64,000 nt of DNA from an uncultured Gammaproteobacteria bacterium. Lineage in GTDB: Bacteria; Patescibacteriota; Patescibacteriia; Magasanikbacterales; GWA2-37-8. Below are positions 17,159 to 36,332 of the stretch, one piece after another. The notes under the pieces are model-generated. The model ran no database searches and had not been told where the DNA came from. It worked only from the letters and a program-made list of their open reading frames with translations. Made by a program: the position numbers and the translations under genes. The stretch is from NCBI GenBank assembly GCA_964619625.1, contig CAZUFD010000001.1, positions 59,316-123,315 of the forward strand. The letters run 5' to 3'. How positions within the stretch are numbered: position 1 is the first letter of the stretch; each line of letters opens with the position of its first letter.

Positions 17159-20100
17159 TTGCCAGTTTGGCGTAATATGACAAAGTTTCAAAAATTCGGG
17201 ATAAAATTTTTGTTAGCAGTATTTACCTTTATCACTATCGGCGGATCTTTGTTTTATGTTCAGCCCGCCAAAGCTTTTCCTGTAGAAATTACCTGGGATC
17301 CGGGCTATGTTTGGAGTGTCTATAAAAGTTTTATAAAAGACGCGGCCGTAAGTATCAGCATCCAAACTTTTTCTTATTTTTTACGTCGAGTCGCGTATGA
17401 TTCGGCAGTTTGGCTTGCTTCCGGAGGAAAGGGGCAGGCATCTTTTGCGTATGGAAAAAACTTCGGTGATTATTTAAAAGACGTGGGTGATAGCGCCGCG
17501 GGTGTGGCCATTGAAGCTTTGGGCGAAGACTTTGGTTTTAATTTATGTAAGATTCCTGACCCAAAAATAGATTTGGCTATGCGTATCGGGCTTACGTATA
17601 AATTCATGGATTTAAAGCCGGATTTAAATACTGGTCCGGGAGTGCGTGAGCCAACTTGTACCTGGTCAACATTTCAAAATGACGTCTTAAGCGTGGATAA
17701 TTGGCAAAGCCAGTTTGGGAGCTCCGATAGTATAGCTCGTAAATTTAATGTGGCTTTTTCCGTAGAACAAACAGATATTGGTATCTTGCGCGGCGCTACA
17801 GATAAAATCAATAAATATGTGGCAAAGAAAATTGAAGCCGAGACGCTGCAAAGACAAGAGGGCGAGGGCTATTTGCCAAAAACTACGCTTATTTCCGGAG
17901 ATATTCTAGCTCCGGGCAAGAACATTTCCGAGGAAGCACAGGCGCAGAACCCTAACAAGCAAATCGAAGCGGCCCAAGCCGGATTTTTAACTACCTTGGG
18001 TACGGGTGCGGTCGGCACAATTGCCAGCGCCGGTTCAATATTTTTTAACACCTTAGCTTCACAAATGTTAAAAAATTGGCAGAATAAAGGCATGCTGCCG
18101 TTTGGTATTGGTTGTGTGGCTGGCGTGGGTACCGAATGTAAAGATGTGCAAGATACGCTAAGTAATTTACAGGGACAAGTTTCTCGCGGCGGCAGGCAGG
18201 CCGCACAGGCTTTGTTTAGCGATCTTTTAACGCCGCCAAATATCGCAGTTGATCAGTATAATGTTTTAGTAAATTTTACCAATTGTCCTACCAGCCCCGG
18301 TCCGGATAATTGTGTGGCGGATGCCGGTTTGGCCCAGGCCGCTCAAGAGGCAAATTCTGGCCGCACCGTTACGATCGCTGAAGCTTTAGAAAAAAATTGG
18401 CTCCATGCCGAATGGAGGCTAGTTTCTCCGGATAGGGTAGCCGATAATGTAGACCCAGGCTGTCACCAGCGAGCGTATTGTTATGCCAATATCGCCAAGC
18501 TGCGTAAAGCGCGAATTTTGCCGCTTGGTTTTGAAATCGCAGCCTTAAACAGCAACCCGGATCAGCCATGGACGCTCAAACAGGTTGTGGACGGATTTAA
18601 CGACTGTAATTTTATTAGAGATGTAAATGGTAATGTGGTGGGAGTTGATAACGATCCGGTCAATAAACCGTTCTGTAGATTGATTGATCCAAATTGGGTC
18701 TTGAAAGCGCCGTCGTCAAAGTGTAATTTCATGGCTTATGGAACCAGCCCATATTTTTCCGGTACGCCAAATCGTATTCAGGAGTGTGTAAATATGAGTA
18801 CCTGTGTGGCCTATGATAAGGATGGAAATTGTGCCACGCAAGGATACTGCACCCGAGAAAAAAATGTTTGGAAAATAGACGCGGCTAAATGTGATTCGCA
18901 AAATCGCACCTGCCGTACATTCCAGGATAGTACCGGCAAGACTGTAAGCTATTTGTACAGAACCTTGGATACCGGTTTTTGTAATCAAGATACCGTAGGC
19001 TGCGCCGAGTATAGTTTAAAGCAAAATACTGCCGGCAATTGGGTTGGATACGCGGAAAATGATCTAGGCTCTTTAGGAGAAAATTCTTCCGTTTACTTTA
19101 ATAATAAAGTTTCCACCAACTGTTCATCTAATTCAGACGGATGCTCTTCTTTCCAGGTGGCCAACAGTTCAGAAAAATTATATCTCAAAAAAGCGCCATA
19201 TTATAGCCAGTGTTATGATACGGATTTGTCTACGGCAGCCATAGATTGGCCGCGTACAGCCAGCGATTTAAATAGGCTGCCAAATAAACCGGCTTGCAAT
19301 AATTATTCCCAAGCCTGTATTGCCGACGAAGTAAATTGTAATTGGTACTCACCAACCAGTTATACGGGAGACAATATTCCCGGCAAATACACCCCGGCTA
19401 CTGTTTTGGAAGGCCAAATAGTTTGGAACGATCAGTGTGATGCTAGATGCGTGGGGTATGCCGCATACAGGGAAATGCCAAGTAATTATTCCAACGGTCA
19501 ACCTGTTTCTTACATTATTCCTTCATCTGGCAATTCGTGTAACGCCGTAGATGAGGGCTGTGCCAGCTTTACAAACCTCGGCACAACCGAAGGCGGTTTG
19601 GAAAAAGTTGAGCATTATTCTTATTTGCGACCTTGTATTTTGCCCGACACCACTAAACAAAAGACATTCTTTACATACGAAGGATCGGCTGTGGGCGGTT
19701 TCCAACTGAAGAGTTTTGTTTTAGAAAAAGATACGGATGGCAGTCCTAAATATTTTTATCGCACTGCCGATGATTTGGCTACGTATGCAGCTACTTGCAG
19801 CCAAAGCCTCTATCAACAAGGCTTGGCAAATCCGGATTGCCGTCAATTTAATGATGATCAAGGGGCTGTATATTACAAATTATTGTCAAAGACTATCGCG
19901 GTTGCCAGTAACTGTACGCCATTTAGATTAAATGATACCGAACTACACGATGTTGCGTTAAATGAAGTCAATTGTTTGGCGCAAAGAGGAAAATGGGATG
20001 CAACTGCCGGAAGTTGTCAGGTATGTTTCCAAAATGGTGAATACCGAGACGGTGAGTGTTTCTATTATGGCCTGCCCGGAAGTACGCCTAATACGGCCGG

Positions 20101-23100
20101 TACCAGCAAGCCATGCGCCGCAGCGGTAAATACCTGCCGCGCTTATAAAGGAAACACCGGCAACAATGTCCGTAATATTTTTACCAACAATTTTGAACAA
20201 GCGGTCGCGTCCGATGCTTTAGCTGGCTGGGGACCATCCGCGGATATCGCGCAATCACTTGAATCAACCCGGTCTGGAGAACATTCCTTGTCATATAATG
20301 GCACAGGCGCAGTATACAAGGACATACTATTAACTCCAGGTGAAAGTTATGATCTTACGTTCTGGGCCAAAGGAGCGGTGGGAGAAACAGTTACAGTTAC
20401 TTTAGAAAATAATCAAGTTTCTAATTTGGGTACAATCAGTGTCGGCGATGCTTGGCAAAATTATCACCTCGGTCCAATAGAATTAGCCGGAAATGTTTCC
20501 AGTACCAAATTGCAATTTGCAGTTAACGGCCGGTTATTCTTGGATAATGTTCGCCTCAAAGAAGTTGCCGATTTTATCTATCTTGTCAAAAATTCCCTCA
20601 GTGTTGATCCGGTTTGTGATAGCAATCTAAACGATAATTTACCGGGCGAAGCCTTGGGTTGTTCGCAGTATCAGACCCCAGATAATAGGCCAATTTATTT
20701 AACTGGTTTTACTTCGCTGTGTCGTGAAAAAGCAATCGGTTGTACGGCAGTATATGATACGCGCAATACGCCGGATGAAGTCGGCCCACGAGCGTATAAT
20801 GTTTGGCTATCTGGGCCAGAAGGTCAAAGTACCAGCCGAAATATTATTGGCACGGAATATAGATGCCAGGTTGCGCTTGGTCAAAAAGGTTGTTATGTAC
20901 ATGTAACCGGCGCAAATTTAAGCGCTATAGTTGCCGGCGGAGGCGCGATAGTTACTTCAACTATATACGTGCAGCCAGATTCGCCAACTACCACGCCTCT
21001 ATATTTAGTAGCTAGCCGTGAAGCGACCTGTAGTCCGGTTGATTTAGGTTGTACGAAAGCCGGAAAACTGGTACAGACTCCAACCGGCCCAACGTATACC
21101 GAGGTAATAGTCAAAAAAGATCCGAGCAGTTTTAATACCACGCTTTGTCAGCAGGAAGCGGTTGGTTGTAACGCATACTCTTCAAGCGATGGGGCGCTGT
21201 ACTTTAAAGATCCGCAGTATTTAGGTCAAAAAGTTTGCGCTTACAGAGATAATATAACTAAAAACGGTGTTAGATATAATGGTTGGTTCTGGAAAGGCGT
21301 AGGCAAGTGTGGCGCCGGCGCCGTCAGCGATCCATTCTGTACCAAAGACAGCGATTGCGCGGCCGGAGTTACCTGTAATCAAAAAGATGAACAGCCGTGC
21401 TATCCAAATTATTTGCAATCCGGAAATAGCTACGGCCTGTGGTCGTATGGCGTAAGCAGTTCATATAATAATTTTGTGGGTGAATGTCCTGCTACCCAAA
21501 ACGGTTGTACCGAATTTATAGATCGTAATGAAAATAATAAAACATATTATCTTATTAATGATGACAGGTTAAAGACACAGCAAACTGAATGCAACGGACA
21601 AATCAGTGAAAAATCCGGTTGTATATTGCTTGATAAAACCGATTCGCCAAATAAATTATGGAATACAGCCGCTTCGTATGCGGCCAGCGCCGGCCAAAAT
21701 AATAATTTAGTCGCGCCAGTTGCTGGAACAGGTACGGCCACAAACGATGCCAATGTTATTTTGAAAGTCAGCCGAGATAGAGAATGTGGAGAGTGGCTCC
21801 AATGCCGATCTTCGCATCGTGTCTTTGACACGCAATCGGGCAGCTACAAAGAAGTTTGTGACGCCATCGGCCGCTGTAATAAATCTTTGGATTCATACAG
21901 CAACACCGACTTTATCAATTGCTCCAATTGGCTTGATAACAACCACGAACTCAGCAATCAGATTTTAACTGATGACGCGTACCGCAATCGCAATACCACT
22001 TGGAAAGGCCAGGACTTTAGCGGTTACAGTATTTTAAATACTTTCCCTGTGGAAGAATTGTCCGAAGTAAATGTGGGCAACGCTACCGTGGCCGATTGGC
22101 GTTTGGCCAAAACACTCGCTTGTGGCGGAGGTCCTAATTGCAGATCTGCCGCCGACCTTAATAGTCCATCTTGTAGATCAACCAGTGTTGGGTTGCCGTG
22201 TGGTCGCAATAATGCTGGTGTTTGTTTGGGTTCGGTAAATCCAGTTTGTGTCCAGGATTTAGACAGTCCGGCTGTTGGTGTTCCTCGTCAATCCATAGCG
22301 CCAAGCTGTCGCGCTTATCCGGAAGAAACTTCGCCGTTCCCCAATAGCCAAGCTATCAACGAGTCGCTTGCGTTTAATTCTGTAAATACATGTAATGAAA
22401 ATCCGGGCTTTAGCAATGATCCTGCTAAATACAACAGTTGTGAATGTAATTACACCAAAGTTACATATGGAGACGCAATCACAAAATATTGGAATTTCAG
22501 CAATCCGAACAATGAGGGTATCTTGGATGCCAATAATCAAAATTTACAAGGCGTGGTAAGTGGAATCTGTGTTGGCGGCGACAGCGCCGATCGGGCTTGT
22601 GATTCAGATAGTGATTGCGCTGGCGGAAGCTGTCAAAAATTAAAGAAACAATCTCGTCTTATCGGTTGGCAAGGATATTGTGTGGAACCTGATTTGTCCA
22701 GACCGCTTAATGCCGAACAAAATAGTTTTGCCTGCTTAACCTGGTTCCCTAAAGACAATATCACCGGCGCGTTTGATATAAATAATCAGCATGTGGAGGC
22801 CGGTTTCCAGGCGACCGAAACAAACGGTAAATATTACTGCTTGGAAGCAAAAGGTTATCAGGAAACTAATAGTAATACGGCGGTAAATGGAACGGGTGCG
22901 CTTACATATAACAAGCTTTTGGGGGGCGTGTTAGTCGATCATAATGGAAGTAATAATACTACTAATAGAGAAAAAAGAGTTATAGCAGTAAGTAGTGGCC
23001 GTCCGATTTATCGCGATGAGATTGATTATATTTTAATATCTCCTGGAACCGGTGGCGGAAGCTGGTTTCCAAATACCAGCGAACCTTTCCTGTCTTTCTA

Positions 23101-24757
23101 TATTAGAAATGGTTTGATTACAAAATATAATGGTCCAGTTTGGAATGTAGTAAGAAAGAACGGAAACGATCCAAATGAAGAAATAATTCAAAATGCTCAG
23201 CAGCTTTATAAAGAAGCTGTTAGTTTGGCACCTGGTCAGTATGTTTGGTCCGATGGACGAGATAGTAGATATTGGTATATACGTCATGATGATGGCCAAG
23301 GCGACGGTAACGATCATTATCAGTATGCTGATCCATATTCAGCTGCCACCGGCCCTTTTGCTGATCTGTTAAGATCAGACTGCGCTGGCAGTATAGATGT
23401 AAATGGTAGGGATGACTATCAAGGTGCTTGTTTAGGTATAAATGTAGATGATAACGATGATGGTTGTGCGATAAGGGTAGTCTTTGATCCGGATGGTCGT
23501 TTAAATAGAGTAAACCTGGTTTGTTTTACCGGTGATAGCGCTCAAAATGAAGGAAGATATTTCAATGTTTACGTAGGGCTGCGCGAACCTTGCGCCAATA
23601 TTGCTCAAACCGAAACAAATCCGTATACATCCGTTGGTTGGACAGACAGGTTGTGGCGTCAAAGTACATTTGCAATCCCAACATTAAATTATCGTAATTC
23701 ACTTATCAGTTCTCCATACGGTAGTTTGGCTATGCCAAGTTCACTTGTGCCGGATAAATTAATTAATCTCTTTACCCATTACAACAGCACTGTCTTTGAT
23801 CCGCCGCCTGCGGTGGCCGGTGCTCCTTATTCTTGTATTGGCACTTGTTTACAGACCAATCCAACGGCTCAAGAAGGTTTGTCTGGCACGGCCAGCCAAA
23901 GAACAGGTTTTCAAGGCCAAGAAAGTCTGGGACAAATTTTTGCCAAAGTTGATAATGTTTGGAATTGGGGCTTTAGTACTGTCAATTCAGCCTGGTCGTA
24001 TCAAGCAAATACAAGTCTTACTTATAACTTTACCGAAAGATCATCCGATGCCAATGCTCCGCAAGTCCGCGCTTTGGGAGCCTGCAGACCCGGAGGAAAA
24101 TGTTTGGAAGGTAATGTTGCCGGTATGAGTATAAACGATAGAGCCAGCGGTGATATCGTGTTTAATAGCAACGTTGGTGTTGTTAATGCCAAATTCTTTG
24201 GCTTTGCCAACCAAGATCAAATGCCAATTAGAAAAATTAAATTGGATTGGGGAGACGGCAATGTTGTTTCTCTAGACGGTTATTTCCGTAATCAGCGCGG
24301 CACTGTAAATGGTACCTGCGGATCTGGCGGCACTTGTCTGATTGGCTCGGTTGCCACAGGCAAGTCATGTTCCTCAAACAGCGATTGTACGAATATGGAT
24401 AATTGTTTTGCCGAAAGTCAGGCGCCAAACTTTGGACAGATTGCCGGTAAAACTTGTGACTCCGCCTATTTCCGATTTGATCATGTCTATCAGTGTTCTC
24501 GCGAAAGCAGTAGTTGGACAAATAGTTGTCCGAACGCGCAAGCCCAGAGTTTGTATGGCGGCTGTTGCGCGTTCCAGCCAAAAGTTCAATTAAAAGATAA
24601 TTGGGGATGGTGTAATGGAACTTGTACCGGCGGAGTTGGTGGCAATGGCTGCTATGATAGAGATTGGGGACCGGTGTTAGATCAAAGTTTAGAATGTAAT
24701 TCTTCGGGCGCATATACTCCGTTTGCCGGCAGGATTATAGTTATCCCGAATGATTAA
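17159..24757 (+). CDS. Giant (2532 aa) Cys-rich secreted/surface protein with a carbohydrate-binding-module-like segment; function unknown
   Basis: Single 7.6-kb ORF with an N-terminal TM/signal segment and more than 150 Cys residues. A CBM_4_9-like stretch (YDLTFWAKGAVGETVTVTLENNQV...LFLDNVRLKEV). The C-terminus carries short Cys-rich repeat patterns such as CDSDSDCAGGSC and CSSNSDCTNMDNC. Confidence 0.7.
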   Translation: MPVWRNMTKFQKFGIKFLLAVFTFITIGGSLFYVQPAKAFPVEITWDPGYVWSVYKSFIKDAAVSISIQTFSYFLRRVAYDSAVWLASGGKGQASFAYGKNFGDYLKDVGDSAAGVAIEALGEDFGFNLCKIPDPKIDLAMRIGLTYKFMDLKPDLNTGPGVREPTCTWSTFQNDVLSVDNWQSQFGSSDSIARKFNVAFSVEQTDIGILRGATDKINKYVAKKIEAETLQRQEGEGYLPKTTLISGDILAPGKNISEEAQAQNPNKQIEAAQAGFLTTLGTGAVGTIASAGSIFFNTLASQMLKNWQNKGMLPFGIGCVAGVGTECKDVQDTLSNLQGQVSRGGRQAAQALFSDLLTPPNIAVDQYNVLVNFTNCPTSPGPDNCVADAGLAQAAQEANSGRTVTIAEALEKNWLHAEWRLVSPDRVADNVDPGCHQRAYCYANIAKLRKARILPLGFEIAALNSNPDQPWTLKQVVDGFNDCNFIRDVNGNVVGVDNDPVNKPFCRLIDPNWVLKAPSSKCNFMAYGTSPYFSGTPNRIQECVNMSTCVAYDKDGNCATQGYCTREKNVWKIDAAKCDSQNRTCRTFQDSTGKTVSYLYRTLDTGFCNQDTVGCAEYSLKQNTAGNWVGYAENDLGSLGENSSVYFNNKVSTNCSSNSDGCSSFQVANSSEKLYLKKAPYYSQCYDTDLSTAAIDWPRTASDLNRLPNKPACNNYSQACIADEVNCNWYSPTSYTGDNIPGKYTPATVLEGQIVWNDQCDARCVGYAAYREMPSNYSNGQPVSYIIPSSGNSCNAVDEGCASFTNLGTTEGGLEKVEHYSYLRPCILPDTTKQKTFFTYEGSAVGGFQLKSFVLEKDTDGSPKYFYRTADDLATYAATCSQSLYQQGLANPDCRQFNDDQGAVYYKLLSKTIAVASNCTPFRLNDTELHDVALNEVNCLAQRGKWDATAGSCQVCFQNGEYRDGECFYYGLPGSTPNTAGTSKPCAAAVNTCRAYKGNTGNNVRNIFTNNFEQAVASDALAGWGPSADIAQSLESTRSGEHSLSYNGTGAVYKDILLTPGESYDLTFWAKGAVGETVTVTLENNQVSNLGTISVGDAWQNYHLGPIELAGNVSSTKLQFAVNGRLFLDNVRLKEVADFIYLVKNSLSVDPVCDSNLNDNLPGEALGCSQYQTPDNRPIYLTGFTSLCREKAIGCTAVYDTRNTPDEVGPRAYNVWLSGPEGQSTSRNIIGTEYRCQVALGQKGCYVHVTGANLSAIVAGGGAIVTSTIYVQPDSPTTTPLYLVASREATCSPVDLGCTKAGKLVQTPTGPTYTEVIVKKDPSSFNTTLCQQEAVGCNAYSSSDGALYFKDPQYLGQKVCAYRDNITKNGVRYNGWFWKGVGKCGAGAVSDPFCTKDSDCAAGVTCNQKDEQPCYPNYLQSGNSYGLWSYGVSSSYNNFVGECPATQNGCTEFIDRNENNKTYYLINDDRLKTQQTECNGQISEKSGCILLDKTDSPNKLWNTAASYAASAGQNNNLVAPVAGTGTATNDANVILKVSRDRECGEWLQCRSSHRVFDTQSGSYKEVCDAIGRCNKSLDSYSNTDFINCSNWLDNNHELSNQILTDDAYRNRNTTWKGQDFSGYSILNTFPVEELSEVNVGNATVADWRLAKTLACGGGPNCRSAADLNSPSCRSTSVGLPCGRNNAGVCLGSVNPVCVQDLDSPAVGVPRQSIAPSCRAYPEETSPFPNSQAINESLAFNSVNTCNENPGFSNDPAKYNSCECNYTKVTYGDAITKYWNFSNPNNEGILDANNQNLQGVVSGICVGGDSADRACDSDSDCAGGSCQKLKKQSRLIGWQGYCVEPDLSRPLNAEQNSFACLTWFPKDNITGAFDINNQHVEAGFQATETNGKYYCLEAKGYQETNSNTAVNGTGALTYNKLLGGVLVDHNGSNNTTNREKRVIAVSSGRPIYRDEIDYILISPGTGGGSWFPNTSEPFLSFYIRNGLITKYNGPVWNVVRKNGNDPNEEIIQNAQQLYKEAVSLAPGQYVWSDGRDSRYWYIRHDDGQGDGNDHYQYADPYSAATGPFADLLRSDCAGSIDVNGRDDYQGACLGINVDDNDDGCAIRVVFDPDGRLNRVNLVCFTGDSAQNEGRYFNVYVGLREPCANIAQTETNPYTSVGWTDRLWRQSTFAIPTLNYRNSLISSPYGSLAMPSSLVPDKLINLFTHYNSTVFDPPPAVAGAPYSCIGTCLQTNPTAQEGLSGTASQRTGFQGQESLGQIFAKVDNVWNWGFSTVNSAWSYQANTSLTYNFTERSSDANAPQVRALGACRPGGKCLEGNVAGMSINDRASGDIVFNSNVGVVNAKFFGFANQDQMPIRKIKLDWGDGNVVSLDGYFRNQRGTVNGTCGSGGTCLIGSVATGKSCSSNSDCTNMDNCFAESQAPNFGQIAGKTCDSAYFRFDHVYQCSRESSSWTNSCPNAQAQSLYGGCCAFQPKVQLKDNWGWCNGTCTGGVGGNGCYDRDWGPVLDQSLECNSSGAYTPFAGRIIVIPND

Positions 24758-25894: not shown

Positions 25895-28800
25895 ATGCTT
25901 GCGAGACTTAAAAATAATTTATTTTTGGTTTTCAGTAAAGGCTGGAATTTTTTGCGTCCTCGTCAGAAGCTTGGGTTAATCAGTTTTGTAATTATTTCAA
26001 GTTTAATTATAGCTGTCTGGTTTATATTCACTCCCGTATCTTACGCGCAGAGTTTGGCTGGGGCGGGTGAGTGGCTTCTGGAATTATTTTCCGATCTTCT
26101 CTTTGCGCTTGCCGGTCTTTTTATTAAGCTAACTTTTTTCTCTCTAAAATTTATTATAGAAGTAGCCGGCTACAATGGCTTTATAGATTCTCCGGCGGTA
26201 ATTGTTGGCTGGGTAATGGTGCGCGACATTACCAATATGTTTTTTGTGGTGGTACTGCTTATTATATCTTTCGGCACGATTTTGGGCTTAGAACAATATG
26301 AATATAAAAAATTATTGGTCAAGCTTCTCATGGCTGCAGTTATCGTAAATTTTAGCCGTCTGATCTGCGGACTCATTATAGATATTGCCCAAGTGGTGAT
26401 GATCACATTTGTAAACGGAATTGCGGCCACGGCGAGCGGCAACTTGGTAAACATGTTTCAGGTAGATCAGATATTTAAATTGGCTGAAGGACAAACAACC
26501 AAAGTTGGTTCTACCTTTGAAATTTTTTTGGCAGCCGTAGCCGCGATTGTGTTTGCCACCATGATGCTTGTTACCATGCTAACTTTTTTGTTTTTACTCT
26601 TGGCGCGTATGGCCATGCTTTGGGTGCTCATCGTTTTATCTCCATTTGCCTTTGTGTTAAATGTTTTGCCGCAGACAGAAAAATACGCCAGTCAGTGGTG
26701 GGAGCAGTTTGGAGGCCATGTCGTAGCCGGCCCCATCATTGCTTTTTTTCTTTGGTTGTCATTTGTAACCGTCGGCGCGGGCACGGCTTTTGATGAAATT
26801 AAAAAACATAATGCTTTGCCGCAAGATCAAACTACCGTCTCGCCTGAAGAAGAGCAAACTGGCGTTACTCAAATCATGAGTTGGGCAAAGATGGCAAATT
26901 TTGCAATTGCAATTGCAATGCTGCTTGCGGGCGCGAAAATGGCTGAACAGCTTGGTGTAGTTGGCGGAGGTTTGATGGGCAAAGCCGGAGAGCTCGGAGG
27001 GAAAGTTGCCAGGTATGCTTCCGGTTTACAGGCTGCCAGATGGACTGCGGGTAATGTGCTAAAGCCGGCAGCCAAGTTAGCTGGGCAGGGTCTTTATTAT
27101 GGAACTAATAGAATTCCAGGACTTGCCGGTATTCATCCCGAAGCTTGGAAGCGCAGAGGTAGGAATATTAAAAGCAGAGTGGTAGGTTGGTATAATGAAG
27201 GAAAAGTTAAAGGCACGGTACAAGCCGGAGAAATTTCTAAAGCTTTTAAAGTAAATAAAAAAGGCGAGTATGTAAAGGGTAAAGAAAAAGTAAAAAAGGT
27301 AGATGAGAAGGGTGATATTATGTATGAAAAGGATGAACATGGTAATTATAAGCTCGATAAACAAGGAAATAAAATTGCCATGTACGAAGAAGCAAGAGAC
27401 AAGGAAGGGAACATTTTGAGAGATAAGGATAACAATGTTATTTATAAAGAACAAGAAATTTTGCAGAGCGGTGCGGGTGATTGGTTTAAACGGCAATTTG
27501 CGCGCGCAAGATTAGAGTTTGGAGGGGGTTATGATGCTTTCCATCAGGCTTATTCTGAAGATTTGGAAGCAACAGCAGAAGCGAAGCATGAACAGCTTGA
27601 TCATTTGGCAAGTACTAGCAGTTTGCCTGTAGGTTTGGAGAAACAAAAAGCCAAGGAGTGGCTAGAATTTTTGGAACATACAGGTACTGATATTAAACTC
27701 GGAAAAGCAGCAGATATGGATAAGCTGCGAGAGGATATCATGCACACTATTGAACATGGTGGGCCAGATGTAAATAAAAATCTTGCGAAGCTTGGCTTGA
27801 ATGACAAGGAAATCTTTAAGGCAAAAGAAGGTTTTGACAGGTTTAATAGATCAATGCAGTATAAGGCTAGTACTAAAGTTGCAAAAGAATATGTTGGAGA
27901 AGAGCATAAGAAGCAAGAATTAAAGGCATTACAAAAATATCTTGGAAAAGCAGAAGGTGTTACTTTGGAGAGCAAGACAGCCGAATTAAAAGCAGGGACA
28001 AAACAGATTGAAGAAAAACTGCAGTCACAAAAAGAATTGGAGGAGTTAAAAGAAATAAAGAAATTGCTAGAAGGAAAGGGTGAAAAAGTTCAAGCAGTTA
28101 TACTCTCTACCAGAGCCGAGCTTTTAAATTCTAAAGAGGCTGTAGATATAAAAAATGAAGAAGACAGTTTGCGCGCGCGAGCCCGAGATTATGTAAAGCG
28201 CGGAGAAGAAGATAAGGCGGAAGCGTATCTGAGAAGAGCTGATTCTTTGGGTTTGGAAAAAGCCAGAGAAGCAACCAAAAATTTGTCTGGTGATGAAATG
28301 GCAGCGCGCGCGGCTCTTTTAGCAAACAGGTTAGTTGCAGCTAGAAAAGTTGGTAATGAAGATGAGATTAATGCTTTGGTTCAAAAGTTAGCAGTGCTTA
28401 GAAGTACTGCTATGACCCAGCCTGCCTGGATTAGTCCAGTGGTAGATCGCGAGATAGAAAGAGCTATAGGTATCACTGCTGCCCAAAAGGCTGGCATGAC
28501 ACCGCAACAATATAATTTATCTTTGGATTTAGGTAAAATTTCTGGTGTTAAAAGAGTCGCGACTGACGCAGGCGAGTTAGAAAGTCGTTTAGGGGGTCCA
28601 GCAAAAAATCAAGCTTATTTAAGAGATAGAAGATTGGCAGTAGAAAGCGCTCTTGAGAAGTCAAGGCGCGAGGTTGCGGGAACAATTGAACCTGATTATG
28701 ATAGAGACAAAGGAAAGGTAATATATAGAGTGGTGACAGTTGCAGATTCAAAAAAATCAGATGCTGAGTATATGGCTTGGAGTAAGAAGGTAGATTTAAC

Positions 28801-29080
28801 CACTTCAGCCGGAGCCCCTATTTCTAATTTAGGTCGTGATACAAGCGGTAAGATTTTAAAAGAAGCTTTACAAACATGCGCAACAGAAGTTGAATTAATG
28901 GCCAGCAAGCTGGCAGGTTTAACTGCAAATCAGTTCAATAGAATTCCTAAAGTTATTGAGGATTTGCAAAAATCAGATGATGAAGTAAAAAAAGCGATAG
29001 TAGCAATGGTTCAGGCAAATGATGGTCATAATAAAGATTTCTTGAAACAATTAAAGTCTGCCTTAAATGTTGAAGATTAA
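25895..29080 (+). CDS. VirB6/TrbL(PrgH)-like polytopic membrane protein with a roughly 700-aa K/E-rich coiled-coil C-terminal extension
   Basis: The N-terminal 300 aa have about 6-7 TM helices, in a position expected for a T4SS VirB6 analog. The rest is a low-complexity KE-rich helical region. The call rests on context and architecture. Confidence 0.5.
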   Translation: MLARLKNNLFLVFSKGWNFLRPRQKLGLISFVIISSLIIAVWFIFTPVSYAQSLAGAGEWLLELFSDLLFALAGLFIKLTFFSLKFIIEVAGYNGFIDSPAVIVGWVMVRDITNMFFVVVLLIISFGTILGLEQYEYKKLLVKLLMAAVIVNFSRLICGLIIDIAQVVMITFVNGIAATASGNLVNMFQVDQIFKLAEGQTTKVGSTFEIFLAAVAAIVFATMMLVTMLTFLFLLLARMAMLWVLIVLSPFAFVLNVLPQTEKYASQWWEQFGGHVVAGPIIAFFLWLSFVTVGAGTAFDEIKKHNALPQDQTTVSPEEEQTGVTQIMSWAKMANFAIAIAMLLAGAKMAEQLGVVGGGLMGKAGELGGKVARYASGLQAARWTAGNVLKPAAKLAGQGLYYGTNRIPGLAGIHPEAWKRRGRNIKSRVVGWYNEGKVKGTVQAGEISKAFKVNKKGEYVKGKEKVKKVDEKGDIMYEKDEHGNYKLDKQGNKIAMYEEARDKEGNILRDKDNNVIYKEQEILQSGAGDWFKRQFARARLEFGGGYDAFHQAYSEDLEATAEAKHEQLDHLASTSSLPVGLEKQKAKEWLEFLEHTGTDIKLGKAADMDKLREDIMHTIEHGGPDVNKNLAKLGLNDKEIFKAKEGFDRFNRSMQYKASTKVAKEYVGEEHKKQELKALQKYLGKAEGVTLESKTAELKAGTKQIEEKLQSQKELEELKEIKKLLEGKGEKVQAVILSTRAELLNSKEAVDIKNEEDSLRARARDYVKRGEEDKAEAYLRRADSLGLEKAREATKNLSGDEMAARAALLANRLVAARKVGNEDEINALVQKLAVLRSTAMTQPAWISPVVDREIERAIGITAAQKAGMTPQQYNLSLDLGKISGVKRVATDAGELESRLGGPAKNQAYLRDRRLAVESALEKSRREVAGTIEPDYDRDKGKVIYRVVTVADSKKSDAEYMAWSKKVDLTTSAGAPISNLGRDTSGKILKEALQTCATEVELMASKLAGLTANQFNRIPKVIEDLQKSDDEVKKAIVAMVQANDGHNKDFLKQLKSALNVED

Positions 29081-29085
29081 TTTGT

Positions 29086-30096
29086 ATGTCGGTATATCCA
29101 AATTTTAAAAATTTATCTCCTGCGGAACTTGAGCAAGAAGAATTAAGATTTAATTCTAAAATTAGTAATGCGGAATTAGCCGATGAGGCGTGGGAACAGC
29201 TCGCTAATTTATTTGATCAAAATTCAGATTTGAAACAGGCCTATAGGGTTTCTTATTGGAGATGGTTTGTGATATTAAGCTGGCAAAAAGTATACGCGGT
29301 TTCTCCGGAGATGCTGCTACTCATGATGAAAGACCAAGTTCCTGCGGCAATATTTTCTAATGTTGACGTACTTGAGGTACTTCTGCGGTATTTGGCTCAA
29401 AATTTTTATTCTCGAGATGATGCCGGTATTTTTATTAATAAATTAAAATCAGAATTTTTCGGATCGGAAATGGTTTTTGGAGACTGGCAAGGACAAAACA
29501 TTAAAATAAAAGATATTATTTCCGAATATTTTTTATTGAATAAAAGAGGCGCTGACTCAATAGAGACCGCGGAATTTATCAATAAATTAAGACAGTTGAT
29601 GTTTCCAAAAGATGCGTTATCATATGCTTATGTAGACCCAGATGAAGGGGTAAACAGATTTTTGGCTTTGATTAATTTTTTTCAAGATATAGATGATGAT
29701 AAGAAAATTCGTGACGTGTTAAATATGTTTTTGCTTCCCGAGAATGCCCCTGGCATTATTCAGGGAGAAAATGCTAATGAAAGCCTAGAATCAACAGCGG
29801 AAGAAACTGGGCCAGTGCCTCAACCAGCTACAGAAGAAAAAACTGAAGTTGAAAAAAATATTGTGCAACCTAGCTATCAAAAAATCCCAGCAGTAGAGCC
29901 GCAAGCTCGGCTCACAGCGGAACAGGTAAAATCCCAAATAGAAAAAGAATTTAAAAAAGACGCGGAAGGAAACTTTGAAAATATAGAAGGTGTCATGCAA
30001 AAACTGGCTGAATTATCGGAAAAATATAATGATCCTAGAGTTGCGGACATGTTGTATTTTGACGAAGAGTCAAATCAATTTAAGTGGAGCGTGTAA
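29086..30096 (+). CDS. Hypothetical soluble protein in the T4SS-like cluster
   Basis: ORF with tight spacing to its neighbours. No recognisable motifs. Confidence 0.45.
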   Translation: MSVYPNFKNLSPAELEQEELRFNSKISNAELADEAWEQLANLFDQNSDLKQAYRVSYWRWFVILSWQKVYAVSPEMLLLMMKDQVPAAIFSNVDVLEVLLRYLAQNFYSRDDAGIFINKLKSEFFGSEMVFGDWQGQNIKIKDIISEYFLLNKRGADSIETAEFINKLRQLMFPKDALSYAYVDPDEGVNRFLALINFFQDIDDDKKIRDVLNMFLLPENAPGIIQGENANESLESTAEETGPVPQPATEEKTEVEKNIVQPSYQKIPAVEPQARLTAEQVKSQIEKEFKKDAEGNFENIEGVMQKLAELSEKYNDPRVADMLYFDEESNQFKWSV

Positions 30097-30105
30097 CATG
30101 CATAT

Positions 30106-31299
30106 ATGGCCGAGCCAATGATTACAATTAAGAAGCCGGACGGAACTTTTACCAAAGTTCCGCTTAGTGAATTTAAAAAAATGCAGGCAAAACCTGCGCC
30201 AAGTCCTGCGGCTGCGTCTGTCCCGGCAGTTGAAATAAAAAAACAAATGGAAGCAGCAATTGAACCTGTTAAGAAAGAACCGGAAGTTGAAACACATAAG
30301 CCGCTCGCATCTCATGTTCATCGTGCGCATGCTGCTCACGCGGCATCTAAACATCCGGTAGAAATTAAAAAACATACATCCGCGCATCACGCAACTCACG
30401 CTCATAAAAAATTAACTCGTGAAGATGCCAAATCTCCGTTGGAGGAAAAGATGCCGGTAAAAACTGACGCGCCTATGGTGAGCGCTAAACGTGACGATCA
30501 GGTAGAGGAAGTGATCAGGAAAATTGGTTTTGGGGTGGCGCCGGATTTGCAAGGCAGATTGAAAAGTCTGATTCTGGCCAAGTTAAAAGATATAAAAAGT
30601 GAAGATGAGATGCGAGATATGCTTTTGCGTCCGGTAAAAAATAGCGGCTTGGGATTATCCGAAGGACAGGTAGAAAAAATTATTAAATTGTGTCGAGAAG
30701 TATTGGGAGCTAATGCTGCAAAAGCTGCAAGTGATAATGCGCAGACGCCAATTTTGAAAGGCAAATCCAGCGGCATGGCACTTATGGTAGAACCGCCCGA
30801 ATTACCAATGGTGATACCTGTAAAAAGCAGCTTTTCTGTGAAAAATTCCACTCCGCCGGTAGCGCCCAACAAATCCGCAACCGATACCATTGTTTCAAAG
30901 ATAATAAAGGAAAACATGGTTGACGAGCCGATGTTTAAAATTAGCAATAAGCCCGCAGTCAGACAAGTAGTACAAGATATTTCCGTTCCGGATATGGAAA
31001 TGGGACCGGTGGAAGAGTTTAAATCAATAACTATCACTGAATTTAGAAGATTGTCCAGCAATCCGGAAGAAGCGGCCAAACGACTATATCAAAAAATGTC
31101 CAATTTGCAAGAAGAATCATTCGTGTGGTATTTGGATGCAGTCGCGGCATATCATAACTCGCCGCTATATTTGGAATATATGTCGGTGGTAAGCCAGTCG
31201 CTGGCGGAAAGAAAATCACTGGCGAATGTACTTGCGGCAAAAAATGGTATAAAATTAAATGAGATGATGGCAATTATTGAAATGGAAAAAATGTTATAA
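30106..31299 (+). CDS. Hypothetical protein with a His/Ala-rich segment
   Basis: HVHRAHAAHAASKHP...HTSAHHATHAHKK. The rest is unrecognised. Confidence 0.45.
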   Translation: MAEPMITIKKPDGTFTKVPLSEFKKMQAKPAPSPAAASVPAVEIKKQMEAAIEPVKKEPEVETHKPLASHVHRAHAAHAASKHPVEIKKHTSAHHATHAHKKLTREDAKSPLEEKMPVKTDAPMVSAKRDDQVEEVIRKIGFGVAPDLQGRLKSLILAKLKDIKSEDEMRDMLLRPVKNSGLGLSEGQVEKIIKLCREVLGANAAKAASDNAQTPILKGKSSGMALMVEPPELPMVIPVKSSFSVKNSTPPVAPNKSATDTIVSKIIKENMVDEPMFKISNKPAVRQVVQDISVPDMEMGPVEEFKSITITEFRRLSSNPEEAAKRLYQKMSNLQEESFVWYLDAVAAYHNSPLYLEYMSVVSQSLAERKSLANVLAAKNGIKLNEMMAIIEMEKML

Positions 31300-31306
31300 T
31301 ATTAAT

Positions 31307-31741
31307 ATGGATCAATTTGTCGTGCCACAATTTATAGAAGTAGAAGATAAGATTTTTGGTCCAATTACGACCAGACAGTTTATTATTTTACTTGTGGCCG
31401 CTTTGATTTTATTTATCACTTTCAAATTAGCGGATACGGCCCTGTTTATTTTTTTGGCTGCGCTTATTGGCGGGTTGGCGCTAATTATCGCGTTTGTAAA
31501 AATAAACGGCCAGCCGTTTCATTATTTTTTACTAAATCTAGTTCAAACCGTTCGCCGCCCCAGTCGTAGGATTTGGTACAAAGATTTTACTAAGGCCGAA
31601 CTAACGGAATCAATTAAATCCGGAAAAATAGAGGTCGTAGAAGCCGTAAAAGAAGTGCCAAAAATGTCATATAGCCGTATTCGCGATCTGTCTCTTATTG
31701 TAAACACTGGCGGTTATTATAGTGGAAGCGAGCGAGAATAA
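31307..31741 (+). CDS. PrgI/VirB3-like small two-TM protein of Gram-positive-type T4SS
   Basis: Start chosen at MDQFVVPQFIEVEDKIFGPITTRQFIILL. Two TM helices, lying directly upstream of VirB4 as in the prgI-prgJ arrangement. Confidence 0.5.
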   Translation: MDQFVVPQFIEVEDKIFGPITTRQFIILLVAALILFITFKLADTALFIFLAALIGGLALIIAFVKINGQPFHYFLLNLVQTVRRPSRRIWYKDFTKAELTESIKSGKIEVVEAVKEVPKMSYSRIRDLSLIVNTGGYYSGSERE

Positions 31742-31815
31742 TACATTATGTATAATGTATTATCGAGCGAACGACACTATATGCGGCCTTTAGGCCCATA
31801 TAGCCAGCGAGCATG
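31741..31815 (+). repeat. Intergenic bipartite-hairpin repeat, copy E. It starts at the stop codon of the upstream gene.
   Basis: ATACATTAT-gt-ATAATGTAT hairpin, then GAGCGAACGAC, then CTATATGCGGCC-TTTA-GGCCCATATAG hairpin. Confidence 0.6.
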
Positions 31816-31832
31816 AATAGTAAATAATACAT

Positions 31833-32510
31833 ATGGAAGAAAAGCCAAAGAAAAAGAAAATTAAAGTCCCCAGCGCTCAAAGCCATCTCCCGTTTGCGGA
31901 GGTGAAGTTTGATACGGTAATCATGAAAGATGGAACATTGCGGGCGGTGCTTATGGTGTCCAGTATAAATTTTGCTTTAAAGAACGAAGATGAGCAAAAC
32001 GCGATTATTTCTTCGTATGTTTCTTTTTTGAATGGCATTGATTTTCCGCTGCAGATTGTGGTGCAATCTCGGCAGCTATACATTAAACCATATTTGGAAA
32101 AGTTGTTAAAAAAAGAACGTGAACAAACCAATGAATTATTGCGCGTACAGATAGCCGATTACAGATCATTCGTATCCGAACTCGTAAGCCTGGGAAATAT
32201 TATGAGCAAACAATTCTTTGTAGTTGTTTCGTACGATCCGCTTTCCAACAGAAAAAAAGGTTTTTGGTCTAGAATTAAAGAGGTAGTTAATCCAGCCGTC
32301 ACTATAAAATTAAAAGATGAACGGTTTCAACTGCGCAAACACGATCTTGATATGAGGGTGCGCCAAATAGAATCGGGATTAACCAGCATGAATTTAGAAG
32401 TGGTCAGACTGGACACGCAATCATTGATAGAATTATTCTATTCCACCTATAATCCTGATATTGCGTTTAGCGAGCATTTGCCCCCCGTAAATGAACTAAG
32501 AGTGGAATAA
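31833..32510 (+). CDS. VirB4/TraE/PrgJ N-terminal domain fragment. It is in the same frame as the downstream ATPase ORF, separated by one TAA.
   Basis: LRAVLMVSSINFALKNEDEQNAIISSY matches the conserved N-terminal region of conjugative VirB4-family proteins. The stop at 32508-32510 is followed in frame by the ATG at 32523. Confidence 0.6.
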   Translation: MEEKPKKKKIKVPSAQSHLPFAEVKFDTVIMKDGTLRAVLMVSSINFALKNEDEQNAIISSYVSFLNGIDFPLQIVVQSRQLYIKPYLEKLLKKEREQTNELLRVQIADYRSFVSELVSLGNIMSKQFFVVVSYDPLSNRKKGFWSRIKEVVNPAVTIKLKDERFQLRKHDLDMRVRQIESGLTSMNLEVVRLDTQSLIELFYSTYNPDIAFSEHLPPVNELRVE

Positions 32511-32522
32511 TTTAAGAATTAT

Positions 32523-34394
32523 ATGGCTTTTAAACCAAAATTTGCTACCGGATCATTTTCCAAACAGAAGGGGCCTTTGACTAGCAAGGAAGAAGAGATC
32601 AGTAAAAAATCCGGTGAGGAACTTGTAACCCTGGAAGAAGAAAGGGTATATCGTGAAGGCACGGTTTCCATTAAGGATTTGCTTGCGCCTTCGGCTTTTA
32701 ATGTTGAATCAAATTTTGTAAAGTTAGGCGATATATTTTGCCGGACGATTTTTGTTGTAACGTACCCGAGGTATATTTCCATCGGCTGGAGTTCGCCGGT
32801 ATTAAATTTATCCATCACGATGGATGTGGGAATGTTTTTCTATCCCGTAAAATCCGCCATTATTTTAAAACAGTTAAAAAATAAAGTCGGCGCCTTGGAA
32901 GCGCAGCTTAACGCGGATTCGGAAAAAGGCGCGCCGCGCGACCCGGTGCGTGAAACGGCTTTGCGTGATATTGAACAGTTGCGTGATGATCTAACTCAAG
33001 GTATTGAACACTTTTTCCAATTCTCATTTTACGTAACCCTTTACGCCAAAAGCAAAGAAGAGCTTGACCAAACTTCGGAAGACGTGGAAAATATTTTTGG
33101 CTCCAAACTTATTACCAGCCGTAAAGTTTTATATCAGGCTGAGCAGGGTTTTAATTCCACTTTGCCGCTGGCCAATGACGAACTGATGATTTCATTTAAC
33201 TTAAATTCTTCGCCGATTGCCGCGTCTTTTCCATTTACTTCCGCCGAACTTACTTCCGATGATGGTATTTTGTATGGCGTCAATCGCCACAATAACAGTC
33301 TTATTTTGTTTGATAGATTTTCTTTACAGAATGCCAATATGGCCGTGTTTGCGACCTCCGGTGCCGGTAAAAGTTACGCGATTAAATTGGAAATTTTGCG
33401 CAGTATGATGATGGGGGTTGATGTTATCGTAATTGACCCGGAAATGGAATATAAACATTTGGCCGATGCCGTGGGCGGAACCTATATAAACATTTCTCTT
33501 TCTTCCGAAGCCAAAGTAAATCCGTTTGATTTGCCTAGACCAACCGGCGGAGAAGATTTTTCCACCGAAGATATTATTCGCGGCGCCGTTATAACCGTAA
33601 AAGGTTTGCTTCGTATCATGCTTGGCAATCTTACCACGGAGCAGGATTCTATTATAGACAGAGCGCTTATTGAAACATACGCTAAAAAAGATATTACGCC
33701 CGAAGCGGATTTGGCTGTAGTTCAGGCGCCGATAGTGCAAGATTTGCAAGAAATTTTGGAAGGCATGGAAGGCTCCGGAGATTTGGTATTAAGACTTAAA
33801 AAATATACCGAAGGTACGTTTAGCGGGCTCTTCAACGCTCCAACCAATGTGGACATGAAAAATCAACTCGTGGTATTTAGCGTGCGTGATTTAGAAGACG
33901 AGCTTCGTCCGATGGCTATATACGCGATTGTTAACTATATTTGGAATGTTGTACGTTCGGAACGAAAGAAGAGAATTTTGGTAATTGATGAGGCATGGTG
34001 GCTGATGCAGCACGAAGATAGCGCGCGGTTTATTTTTGCCTTGGTTAAGCGCGCCCGCAAATATTATTTAGGAGTTACAACCATTACCCAGGATGTAAAT
34101 GACTTTTTAAAATCACAGTACGGTCAGGCTATAGTTACAAACTCCGCTTTGCAGCTCTTGCTCCGCCAGTCACCGGCGGCCATTGATTTGGTGCAAAAAG
34201 TTTTTATCCTTACCGAAGGCGAAAAATATTTACTCTTAGAGAGTGGAGTAGGGGAAGGGATATTTTTCGCCGGTAATAAGCATGCGGCTATAAAGGTGGT
34301 AGCTTCGTATACCGAAGATCAGCTCGTAACCACCAACCCGGAGCAGCTCTTAGAAATAGAAAGGTCTAAAAAAGAATTTGAAAAACAAATATAA
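32523..34394 (+). CDS. virB4: Type IV secretion ATPase VirB4/TrbE/CagE family (central and C-terminal ATPase domains)
   Basis: Walker A ATSGAGKSYAIKLE, Walker B ILVIDEAWWLM, and the YPRYISIGW region typical of VirB4. Confidence 0.8.
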   Translation: MAFKPKFATGSFSKQKGPLTSKEEEISKKSGEELVTLEEERVYREGTVSIKDLLAPSAFNVESNFVKLGDIFCRTIFVVTYPRYISIGWSSPVLNLSITMDVGMFFYPVKSAIILKQLKNKVGALEAQLNADSEKGAPRDPVRETALRDIEQLRDDLTQGIEHFFQFSFYVTLYAKSKEELDQTSEDVENIFGSKLITSRKVLYQAEQGFNSTLPLANDELMISFNLNSSPIAASFPFTSAELTSDDGILYGVNRHNNSLILFDRFSLQNANMAVFATSGAGKSYAIKLEILRSMMMGVDVIVIDPEMEYKHLADAVGGTYINISLSSEAKVNPFDLPRPTGGEDFSTEDIIRGAVITVKGLLRIMLGNLTTEQDSIIDRALIETYAKKDITPEADLAVVQAPIVQDLQEILEGMEGSGDLVLRLKKYTEGTFSGLFNAPTNVDMKNQLVVFSVRDLEDELRPMAIYAIVNYIWNVVRSERKKRILVIDEAWWLMQHEDSARFIFALVKRARKYYLGVTTITQDVNDFLKSQYGQAIVTNSALQLLLRQSPAAIDLVQKVFILTEGEKYLLLESGVGEGIFFAGNKHAAIKVVASYTEDQLVTTNPEQLLEIERSKKEFEKQI

Positions 34395-34420
34395 TAGAAA
34401 TTAGAATTTAATAAAAATGT

Positions 34421-35002
34421 ATGTCACTTCGCGCTCGTATTTTCATTATTATCAGTGTTATAATGCTTCTGGTTTTAGCGGTAAGCATATTCTTAATCGT
34501 AAGAAACAAAAATAAAAAAACCGAAAATGCAAATCCGACAACTGCCACCACCAGCACAAGTAATAATACTCAGTCGGGCAGTCAGGTCGTGGTAGATGGC
34601 CAGCTACCAGCCGGACTAACGGCCCGAACGCCAACCTCGCTAGAGGTGGAAAAAAATAGCGTAGAGCAGCTCGCTAAAATTTTTGTAGAGCGATACGGAT
34701 CGTATTCTACGGATAATGAATTTCAAAATATTAAAGAATCAGAATCGTTGGTTACAAAGTCGTTATGGACAAAAATCAGCGCCGGTATGAACATAAAGCC
34801 CGGTAAAGATTTTGTAGGCGTTACCACTAAAGTGATTAGCGCAAGTATTGCCGATTGGACAGCTAGTAAAGCTACAGTACAGTTGCGACTCATGAGAGAA
34901 GAAAATAAAAATGGCGTAGTGTCTACTCGTTATCAAAATGCAACCGTGGAGATGGTTAAACAAGGTAATGTATGGTTGGCAAACGCGCTCGTTTGGAATT
35001 AA
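34421..35002 (+). CDS. Hypothetical membrane-anchored protein. Its size and position are compatible with a VirB8-like component, but this is speculative.
   Basis: N-terminal TM helix plus a roughly 150-aa extracytoplasmic domain. Confidence 0.4.
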   Translation: MSLRARIFIIISVIMLLVLAVSIFLIVRNKNKKTENANPTTATTSTSNNTQSGSQVVVDGQLPAGLTARTPTSLEVEKNSVEQLAKIFVERYGSYSTDNEFQNIKESESLVTKSLWTKISAGMNIKPGKDFVGVTTKVISASIADWTASKATVQLRLMREENKNGVVSTRYQNATVEMVKQGNVWLANALVWN

Positions 35003-35637
35003 TTAAAGGCTGGGTAAAAGACTGTCTCTTTCCCAAATTTTGTGTCGGTTGCAAAGCAGAAGATCTGTGGTTATGCGATGGTTGCGCTGGTAAAATTATC
35101 AAGATAAAAAATACTTCTTCTTCGGAAAGTAAGGCCCTGGCCCATATTGATGGGGTGGCGGCCTTATTTGATTATGGCGAAAATATAGTTTCAGAATTGA
35201 TTAAACTGTTTAAGTATAATTATATAACAGAACTTACGGAAGTATTTAGAAAAATTGTTAATGATATTAATGTAGAGTTTGATAATAAAAATTTTGTGAT
35301 TATGCCCGTACCGCTGCATCCGCGCCGCCAGCGGGAAAGAGGGTTTAATCAGTCTGAAATTTTGGCAGAAATTTTTGCTGAAAAATTACATTTGCAAGTA
35401 AATAAGGATTTGCGCCGCGTTATTTATACGCAGCAGCAAGCGGCACTATCGGCCGAAAAGCGGTTGGTTAATTTAAAAGATGCCTTTGCTTTTGATGCTG
35501 TGGGGCAAGCAGTTCCGGAGAGAGTTTTATTGGTAGATGATGTATTTACGACTGGAGCCACGATGAGCGAGTGTGCCAAGGCGCTGAAAAATAAAGGAGT
35601 AAAGACTGTTTGTTGTTTAGCGCTGGCTAAAGGCTGA
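34972..35637 (+). CDS. comFC: ComF family protein (ComFC), a phosphoribosyltransferase-type competence protein
   Basis: N-terminal CxxC...CxxC zinc finger (CVGCKAEDLWLCDGC) and the PRTase motif VLLVDDVFTTGATM. Confidence 0.75.
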   Translation: MVGKRARLELIKGWVKDCLFPKFCVGCKAEDLWLCDGCAGKIIKIKNTSSSESKALAHIDGVAALFDYGENIVSELIKLFKYNYITELTEVFRKIVNDINVEFDNKNFVIMPVPLHPRRQRERGFNQSEILAEIFAEKLHLQVNKDLRRVIYTQQQAALSAEKRLVNLKDAFAFDAVGQAVPERVLLVDDVFTTGATMSECAKALKNKGVKTVCCLALAKG

Positions 35638-35641
35638 GGCT

Positions 35642-35974
35642 TTAAAAAGGCAGTAGGGCGCGAGCGTCAGGATTCATCCTATCTATTGTCCATATTGGAT
35701 CCCATACCAAATCTACCACAACCTTTTTTACTTTGGGTAATTTTTTCATTTCTTCTTTTATTTGTTCAATAAGACTGGCGCCATACGGACACCCCATGCT
35801 GGTAAAAGTCATGGTAACAAGCGCTTGGCCATTTTTTATTTCTACGTTATAGATTAAACCCAATTCTACGATTCCCATACCCATTTCGGGATCAAAAATA
35901 GTATTGAGTATTTTCCAATATTCTTGGGTGCGTTTTTCCGGCGGCACGGGAATTATAGTTTTATTTTTGCTCAT
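35642..35974 (-). CDS. DUF59/MIP18-family Fe-S assembly protein (SufT-like)
   Basis: IFDPEMGMGIVELGLIY...TFTSMGCP is the DUF59 signature. It is the last gene of the suf operon. Confidence 0.65.
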   Translation of the reverse strand: MSKNKTIIPVPPEKRTQEYWKILNTIFDPEMGMGIVELGLIYNVEIKNGQALVTMTFTSMGCPYGASLIEQIKEEMKKLPKVKKVVVDLVWDPIWTIDRMNPDARALLPF

Positions 35975-36332
35975 ATATTTTTATAGCCTTTTGCAGGGCA
36001 TTTAATCCAAGCAGGGCGCATTTTAACCGAGCCGTGGTAATAGTAATGCCCAGTAGATCAAAAATATGTTTGGCTTTTATTTTTTTTAGAGACGAAATTT
36101 TTTTGCCTTCAGCGGCATCGGACAGAAGCGACATTGATGCTTGGCTAATAGCGCAGCCATTGCCTGCAAAACCAATTTTTTCTACAACATTATTTTTTAT
36201 TTTTAAATCAAGCTTAATCACGTCGCCGCAGAGCGGGTTGTGTTCGGTAGCAGTAACCGTGGCGTCACTAAGCGCGCCTGCGTGATGGGGGTGTTGGTAA
36301 TGATCAAGAATTGTTTCGGTATATATGTCCAC
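35961..36332 (-). CDS. sufU: SufU/IscU-like Fe-S cluster scaffold/sulfur-transfer protein
   Basis: PLCGDVIKL and GNGCAISQAS Cys motifs in the NifU-like N-terminal domain. Confidence 0.75.
   Translation of the reverse strand: MDIYTETILDHYQHPHHAGALSDATVTATEHNPLCGDVIKLDLKIKNNVVEKIGFAGNGCAISQASMSLLSDAAEGKKISSLKKIKAKHIFDLLGITITTARLKCALLGLNALQKAIKIYEQK

Follow-up and report, generated by a model that had tools for sequence, protein, structure and literature searches.

An in-frame TAA in a patescibacterial type IV secretion locus as the boundary between a trsD-like gene and a short virB4

The window analysed here is a stretch of 64,000 nucleotides of DNA in which two ORFs with similarity to VirB4, referred to as ORF A and ORF B, follow each other on the forward strand. 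Their junction reads ...GTG GAA TAA TTT AAG AAT TAT ATG GCT..., with the TAA at 32508-32510. The ORF starts at 31833 and 32523 differ by 690 nt (3x230), which places both in one common frame, and translation of 31833-34394 in this frame yields exactly one internal stop. A previous reading, made from the sequence alone (the sequence-only reading), had described this arrangement as an interrupted VirB4; its coordinates, shared frame, single TAA and ORF sizes were all reproduced using the window sequence, the ORF list and the translation. The features of the locus are the following:

25895..31299, forward strand: three upstream genes of 1061, 336 and 397 aa, syntenic in related loci, with no Pfam or NCBIfam matches
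31277..31741, forward strand: small membrane protein of the PrgI family (VirB3-like), PF12666, E=1.2e-10, 42 bits (cut-off 27)
31833..32510, forward strand: ORF A, TrsD-like stand-alone protein of 225 aa and a homologue of the VirB4 N-terminal portion
32508..32510, forward strand: TAA stop of ORF A, read here as a genuine gene end, with a stop at the homologous position in 79/79 related loci
32511..32522, forward strand: intergenic spacer of 12 nt, TTTAAGAATTAT; spacers of relatives are 1-175 nt long and not conserved in sequence
32523..34394, forward strand: ORF B, VirB4-like type IV secretion system (T4SS) ATPase of 623 aa, monoderm 'CD1110' type (NF045971, 4AG5, Walker motifs)
34421-35002, forward strand: 193-aa ORF with only sub-threshold matches, to small membrane-protein families; downstream in 74/80 related loci
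34972-35637, forward strand: ComF (TIGR00201 comF, E=2.3e-29, 102.7 bits, below the cut-off of 233.55); downstream in 70/80 related loci

ORF B passed the cut-off of 325 bits for NF045971 ('VirB4-like conjugal transfer ATPase, CD1110 family') with a score of 358.2 bits (E=9e-107). The match spans positions 174-730 of the 752 profile positions. Positions 21-94 align to ORF A, and no single polypeptide at this locus covers the whole profile including its N-terminal region. ORF B additionally matched the TraG P-loop, AAA_10 and DUF87 profiles, as well as positions 292-890 of VirB4_plasma and 274-352 of TraC_F_IV. Both nucleotide-binding motifs could be located: the P-loop SGAGKS at residues 279-284 (nt 33357-33374) and the Walker B motif ILVIDE at residues 485-490 (nt 33975-33992). 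Further, the crystallised C-terminal domain of a Thermoanaerobacter VirB4 (4AG5) aligned to ORF B residues 243-603 with E=2.4e-49, and R388 TrwK matched more weakly (E=1.7e-4). Judged by these profile and motif matches, ORF B is a VirB4-type ATPase.

In case of ORF A, the best NCBIfam match was NF041427 ('TrsD/TraD family conjugative transfer protein'), with residues 27-174 aligning to positions 27-183 of 201 (E=2.3e-08) at a score of 34.1 bits, a small fraction of the 200-bit cut-off. By this alignment, ORF A is a remote homologue only of the TrsD/TraD family. In the profile scan, it aligned only to the N-terminal parts of VirB4-family profiles, namely positions 95-234 of 894 in VirB4_plasma, 21-94 of 752 in CD1110 (NF045971) and 19-183 of 375 in the Pfam profile TraC_F_IV, the latter at a sub-threshold 19.7 bits (cut-off 28.1). 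ORF A thus shows the relationship to the VirB4 N-terminal portion that marks the TrsD/TraD family. Its setting is likewise that of TrsD, with a 225-aa stand-alone protein encoded 12 nt upstream of ORF B, and this setting is shared by 73-79 related loci. The precomputed family PF26593 is assigned to all ORF A homologues; it was not returned by our local Pfam scan. When PDB chains were searched with an ORF A profile, no meaningful match was obtained, the best being a coiled-coil chimera at E=0.49, so the link between ORF A and VirB4 rests on the HMM matches, a fused homologue described below and the fold match. For the latter, TrwK was the best structural match of the structure model of ORF A, and the model shows a predicted VirB4-like fold.

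Taken together, the matches of ORF A and ORF B to full-length VirB4 profiles are complementary and collinear. The same order is seen in the fused homologue, a 942-aa single-chain PrgI-VirB4 fusion of Vescimonas, where ORF A maps to residues 128-255 and ORF B to residues 369-925. The sequence-only reading had placed the split at the boundary between N-terminal domain and ATPase. This placement does not hold, as the division lies inside the N-terminal region: ORF A corresponds to roughly the first half of this region (TraC_F_IV 19-183 of 375) and in ORF B ca. 240 residues of N-terminal sequence (TraC_F_IV 274-352) still precede the ATPase domain, to which 4AG5 aligns from residue 243. The first gene therefore encodes a stand-alone TrsD-like protein and the second a 'short' VirB4 consisting of the second half of the N-terminal region and the RecA-like ATPase domain.

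The gene neighbourhood was compared across 80 related loci, taken from one genome per species. All of them are Magasanikbacteria/Patescibacteria-type MAGs, a few under misleading record titles, with 64-99% amino acid identity to ORF A. A one-strand order is conserved in these loci, running from the 1061-, 336- and 397-aa ORFs through PrgI, ORF A, ORF B and the 193-aa ORF to ComF. PrgI directly precedes the ORF A homologue in 77 of the 80 loci. In the window, the listed PrgI start is a TTG that overlaps the upstream ORF, and the true start is uncertain. The 1061-, 336- and 397-aa genes keep strand and order in 31, 48 and 76 of the 80 loci, respectively, at a median identity of 28-39%; they evolve fast and are presumed to be envelope or channel components. 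Possible candidates for a VirB6-like polytopic membrane protein and VirB2-like pilins would be these upstream 397-, 336- and 1061-aa ORFs, which gave no Pfam or NCBIfam matches. PrgI/VirB3, a TrsD-like protein and VirB4, the combination by which a Patescibacteria T4SS is recognised, occur together here, with synteny in 77-80 loci. The locus belongs to a chromosomal monoderm-type T4SS, and its host is a patescibacterium (CPR) resembling the Magasanikbacteria.

The junction between the two ORFs could be scored in 79 of the 80 loci, one locus being left out as it runs off the end of its contig (L077). In all 79 loci, down to 64% identity, a stop codon closes the ORF A homologue; at the homologous position it is TAA in 56, TAG in 18 and TGA in 5 cases. 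In 73 loci the ATPase starts with an ATG that falls on ORF B residue 1 in the alignment, nearly always as ATG-GCN, while in the remaining six the alignment to ORF B begins at residue 3, 27 or 34 and the start was not placed. Spacers range from 1 to 175 nt with a median of 7 nt; they are at most 11 nt long in 50 of the 73 loci with a placed start, and lengths of 1-5 nt are common. No conservation of spacer sequence was observed among relatives. An 8-mer-like repeat found in the spacers of the closest relatives, TTTAG[GAT]AT, was also considered as a window-wide motif and rejected, with TTAGDATTTAG giving 4 matches at no more than one mismatch where 7.2 were expected. Among homologues, the end of ORF A shifts by 0-2 residues (...VE*, ...VEK*, ...ENA*). 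Conservation is seen on both sides of the junction, with ...(V/I/L)E* closing ORF A and M-A... opening ORF B.

The relative frame of the two ORFs is 0, +1 and +2 in 22, 32 and 19 of the 73 loci with a placed ATPase start, and the appearance of a single in-frame stop recurs in 16 of these relatives (22%). Even the nearest relative (L001), at 99% amino acid and 94% DNA identity over the region, has a TAG, a 34-nt spacer and a +1 frame. Given this distribution, a shared frame is expected by chance in about one of four or five loci and, on the strength of the comparison, that of ORF A and ORF B is a coincidence.

Based on these data, ORF A and ORF B are almost certainly two separate co-oriented genes in which the TAA and the ATG act as normal stop and start. 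The description of VirB4 as interrupted conflicts with the stop found in all 79 loci and with the aligned, independent ATG in 73. Of the options offered by the sequence-only reading, a genuine two-polypeptide arrangement is the right one; a recent nonsense mutation, a sequencing error and readthrough are contradicted by the comparative data. The reading had stated beforehand that the split would be ancestral if orthologues shared its position consistently and the second gene had its own start, and such orthologues were found in 73 of 79 related genomes. A contiguous VirB4, which the reading had proposed to look for at orthologous loci, was present in none of the 79. Across these loci, the trsD-virB4 pair appears to be the ordinary, ancestral two-gene arrangement.

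A recent nonsense mutation that split or inactivated a contiguous virB4, leaving a pseudogene, would account for two ORFs that are in frame, separated by exactly one stop and of normal VirB4 size when joined. We consider it scarcely credible because the stop recurs in every scorable relative with variable spacers and frames, and because proteins of VirB4 size are missing among the closest homologues of ORF A. The 120 closest of 4893 homologues in a collection of 5.8 billion proteins are all 195-245 aa long. When 1.84 billion representatives of 50%-identity clusters were searched exhaustively with HMMER, 2102 clusters matched ORF A at E <= 1e-3; the best 150 of these representatives (33-79% identity) have lengths of 112-452 aa, with none of at least 600 aa. 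In addition, both ORFs are strongly constrained. Compared with the nearest relative, 26 synonymous and 3 non-synonymous codon differences were counted in ORF A, and 41 synonymous and 4 non-synonymous ones in ORF B. Against relatives at 88-94% identity, ORF A shows ca. 100 synonymous and 13-27 non-synonymous differences; for ORF B the codon comparison is limited to the nearest relative, as indels shift the register against L002, L003 and L012. An alignment of 22 ORF A sequences contains 71 invariant columns, and no other gene of the locus is as well conserved as ORF A and ORF B. These substitution patterns show purifying selection at the codon level on both. A false stop created by a sequencing or assembly error has nothing beyond the in-frame appearance in its favour and is of negligible probability, since a stop occurs at the same place in 79 independent assemblies from many projects and the C-terminus of ORF A and the M-A... 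N-terminus of ORF B are themselves conserved.

Programmed readthrough or a reassigned TAA, either of which would yield a fused full-length VirB4, also appears very unlikely, even when incidental readthrough in this genome is included. The 12-nt spacer does lack a further in-frame stop, so that any readthrough would give a fused protein. However, frame relation, stop identity and spacer sequence all vary, contrary to what is expected of a recoding site, and the 1-5 nt spacers of relatives are too short to hold a conserved context or structure. Reassignment is further opposed by stop codon usage in the window. Of 48 window genes taken as a crude set, 34 end in TAA, 11 in TAG and 3 in TGA, and all three codons thus function as stops. 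The full-length RF2 that had been noted in the window was recovered as an intact ORF at 12655-13731, scoring 473 bits against TIGR00020 prfB (cut-off 370) and carrying the SPF and GGQ motifs. Initiation at ORF B is also in line with the rest of the window, where a Shine-Dalgarno-like motif was found for only 3 of the 48 genes and starts typically follow an A/T-rich stretch ending in TATG, as is the case for ORF B (AATTATATG). As starts without a ribosome binding site are normal here, the missing site before ORF B is no argument against independent initiation.

The two-gene arrangement supported here is already known and matches the one in a recent study of Patescibacteria (Quinonero-Coronel et al. 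2025, Microb Genom, PMC12102498). There, the Patescibacteria T4SS is described as homologous to monoderm conjugation machinery, and TrsD as remotely homologous to the VirB4 N-terminal portion. Of the T4SS components retrieved from Patescibacteria, TrsD was the most abundant, with 2,272 homologues, 1,664 of which have VirB4 adjacent. In Ca. Southlakia epibionticum ML1, the TrsD homologue beside virB4 is among the genes listed as essential (PMC12102498; the ML1 cluster is from Wang et al. 2023, as cited therein). Our locus shares with these systems the lineage, the trio of PrgI/VirB3, TrsD-like protein and VirB4, and the position of the TrsD-like gene beside virB4; it differs from them in nothing substantive, being in frame by chance with a 12-nt spacer. 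In a search of the article for selected terms, no passage on the position of the TrsD/VirB4 split was found. The term 'TrsD' does not occur in the main text of Guglielmini et al. 2014 (PMC4027160), although this work is cited by PMC12102498 for the homology of TrsD and VirB4, and the FEMS 2025 review of T4SS nomenclature does not mention TrsD.

Similar modules occur outside the Patescibacteria. Staphylococcal TrsD/TraD and TrsE/TraE (pGO1/pSK41 type) likewise comprise a protein of ca. 200-230 aa encoded just upstream of a VirB4-like ATPase of ca. 650 aa, a statement resting on the name of the NF041427 model and on PMC12102498. Whereas those genes are plasmid-borne, the locus described here lies on the chromosome, and its conservation extends over a phylum-level lineage. 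PrgI, the N-domain protein and the DUF87 ATPase are encoded as three separate CDSs on Clostridium perfringens pJFP838A and on plasmids of Mesobacillus, where the middle gene of the trio is annotated trsD, and of the actinobacterial Miltoncostaea. A plasmid of the haloarchaeal Haloplanus carries a separate 552-aa N-domain protein whose gene overlaps the ATPase gene by 4 nt, with no annotated PrgI. Fused forms are found in Vescimonas, where PrgI and VirB4 form one chain, and in Rubrobacter. The module of PrgI, N-domain protein and ATPase thus appears to exist in several fusion states across lineages. With single-chain VirB4/TraC/TrwK proteins (R388 TrwK, PDB 7O41/7O42) and VirB3-VirB4 fusions, ORF A and ORF B share their collinear order; unlike in those proteins, there is a break in the chain within the N-terminal region, and PrgI/VirB3 likewise has a gene of its own.

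With regard to expression, the spacer leaves no room for a terminator plus a promoter, so ORF A and ORF B are likely co-transcribed, and the dominance of 1-12 nt spacers suggests that they are probably also translationally coupled. In single-chain VirB4 proteins, as seen in the R388 T4SS structures, the covalently attached N-terminal domain anchors the ATPase at the membrane translocon. In the two-gene arrangement, the TrsD-like protein may instead dock non-covalently on the N-terminal region of the short VirB4 and, by analogy, would tether the hexameric ATPase to the membrane translocon together with PrgI/VirB3. We tentatively suggest, as a possibility we ourselves regard as rather doubtful, that a complete VirB4 N-terminal domain is restored when the TrsD-like protein assembles non-covalently with the first ca. 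240 residues of the short VirB4, an assembly that would make the split functionally meaningful instead of neutral. If this were true, the split could, for instance, set the stoichiometry of membrane-tethered versus free ATPase protomers, or TrsD could link PrgI/VirB3 to the motor as an adaptor that can be exchanged. In this particular genome, the in-frame 12-nt spacer might in addition permit a trace of fused readthrough product.

In conclusion, the biology underlying this locus is moderately interesting and already present in the literature, and the window makes the question no more testable than before. Its main lesson is one of caution in annotation, as about one in five relatives look 'interrupted by one stop' by chance alone. 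Such pairs should not be labelled as pseudogenes, frameshift or assembly errors, or recoding sites: a short VirB4 following an in-frame ORF of ca. 225 aa is a normal trsD-virB4 pair, both in Patescibacteria and in many monoderm T4SS loci.

Among the 48 predicted genes of the window, which has a GC content of 41%, a Shine-Dalgarno-like motif was found for only three, and the usual context before gene starts is an A/T-rich sequence ending in TATG. TAA is the stop codon of 34 of these genes, followed by TAG (11) and TGA (3). The release factor 2 gene (prfB) was located as follows:

12655-13731, forward strand, RF2 (prfB), a single uninterrupted ORF with the alignment starting from profile position 1

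With no break in its reading frame, this prfB apparently does without the programmed +1 frameshift present in prfB of many bacteria.

Comparison of the spacers between the trsD-like and virB4 genes showed that the longer ones of the closest relatives contain two to four copies of an 8-mer-like unit, TTTAG[GAT]A[TA]. The spacers in question are those of the closest relative, L001 (5679-5712), and of the related loci L002 and L008-L011, an example being GGATTTAGTACTTAGAATTTAGGATTTAA. The unit is absent from the window's own 12-nt spacer, and across the window the motif is not enriched (4 matches vs 7.2 expected). For six more distant relatives (L067, L068, L073, L078, L079 and L080), the alignment of ORF B, the VirB4-like ATPase gene product, begins at residue 3, 27 or 34 instead of residue 1. 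The start of the aligned region is, for most of these loci, located 100 to ~560 nt 3' of the stop codon of the homologue of ORF A, the TrsD-like gene. Possible explanations for these six loci are a VirB4 N-terminus that is divergent or extended, and the insertion of a small ORF.

Several fusion states of the VirB3/VirB4-N/VirB4-C module were additionally seen among plasmids:

Vescimonas, L084 2620-5448, VirB3, VirB4-N and VirB4-C all within one 942-aa CDS
Rubrobacter, L085 2644 onward, N-domain inside a >1250-aa protein annotated as 'ATP-binding protein'
Haloplanus (archaeon), L086 2941-4599 and 4596 onward, 552-aa N-domain protein and a separate DUF87 ATPase gene with a 4-nt overlap

Two features were identified 5' of the conserved T4SS core:

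17159-24757, forward strand, giant ORF of 2532 aa, ~7 kb 5' of the T4SS genes
~27080-29925, stretch unmatched in L001, taking in ORF 25895-29080 except for its 5' third, and the greater part of ORF 29086-30096

The sole match of the giant ORF was a weak one to CBM_4_9, below threshold (25.3 bits vs a cut-off of 25.9), and the ORF lies beyond the 5-kb flanks with which related loci were fetched. Using blastn against L001, DNA identities of 94% and 90% were obtained for window positions 31822-35977 and 29927-31802, respectively, while ~27080-29925 gave no match. At the protein level, the TrsD-like and VirB4 proteins are 99-100% identical to those of L001; identities to the L001 counterparts (best HSP) are 36% for the 1061-aa and 44% for the 336-aa protein. 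Based on these sequence comparisons, ~27080-29925 resembles a local cassette that is hypervariable or has been replaced; it sits immediately 5' of the conserved T4SS core, and its products are possibly surface-exposed components.
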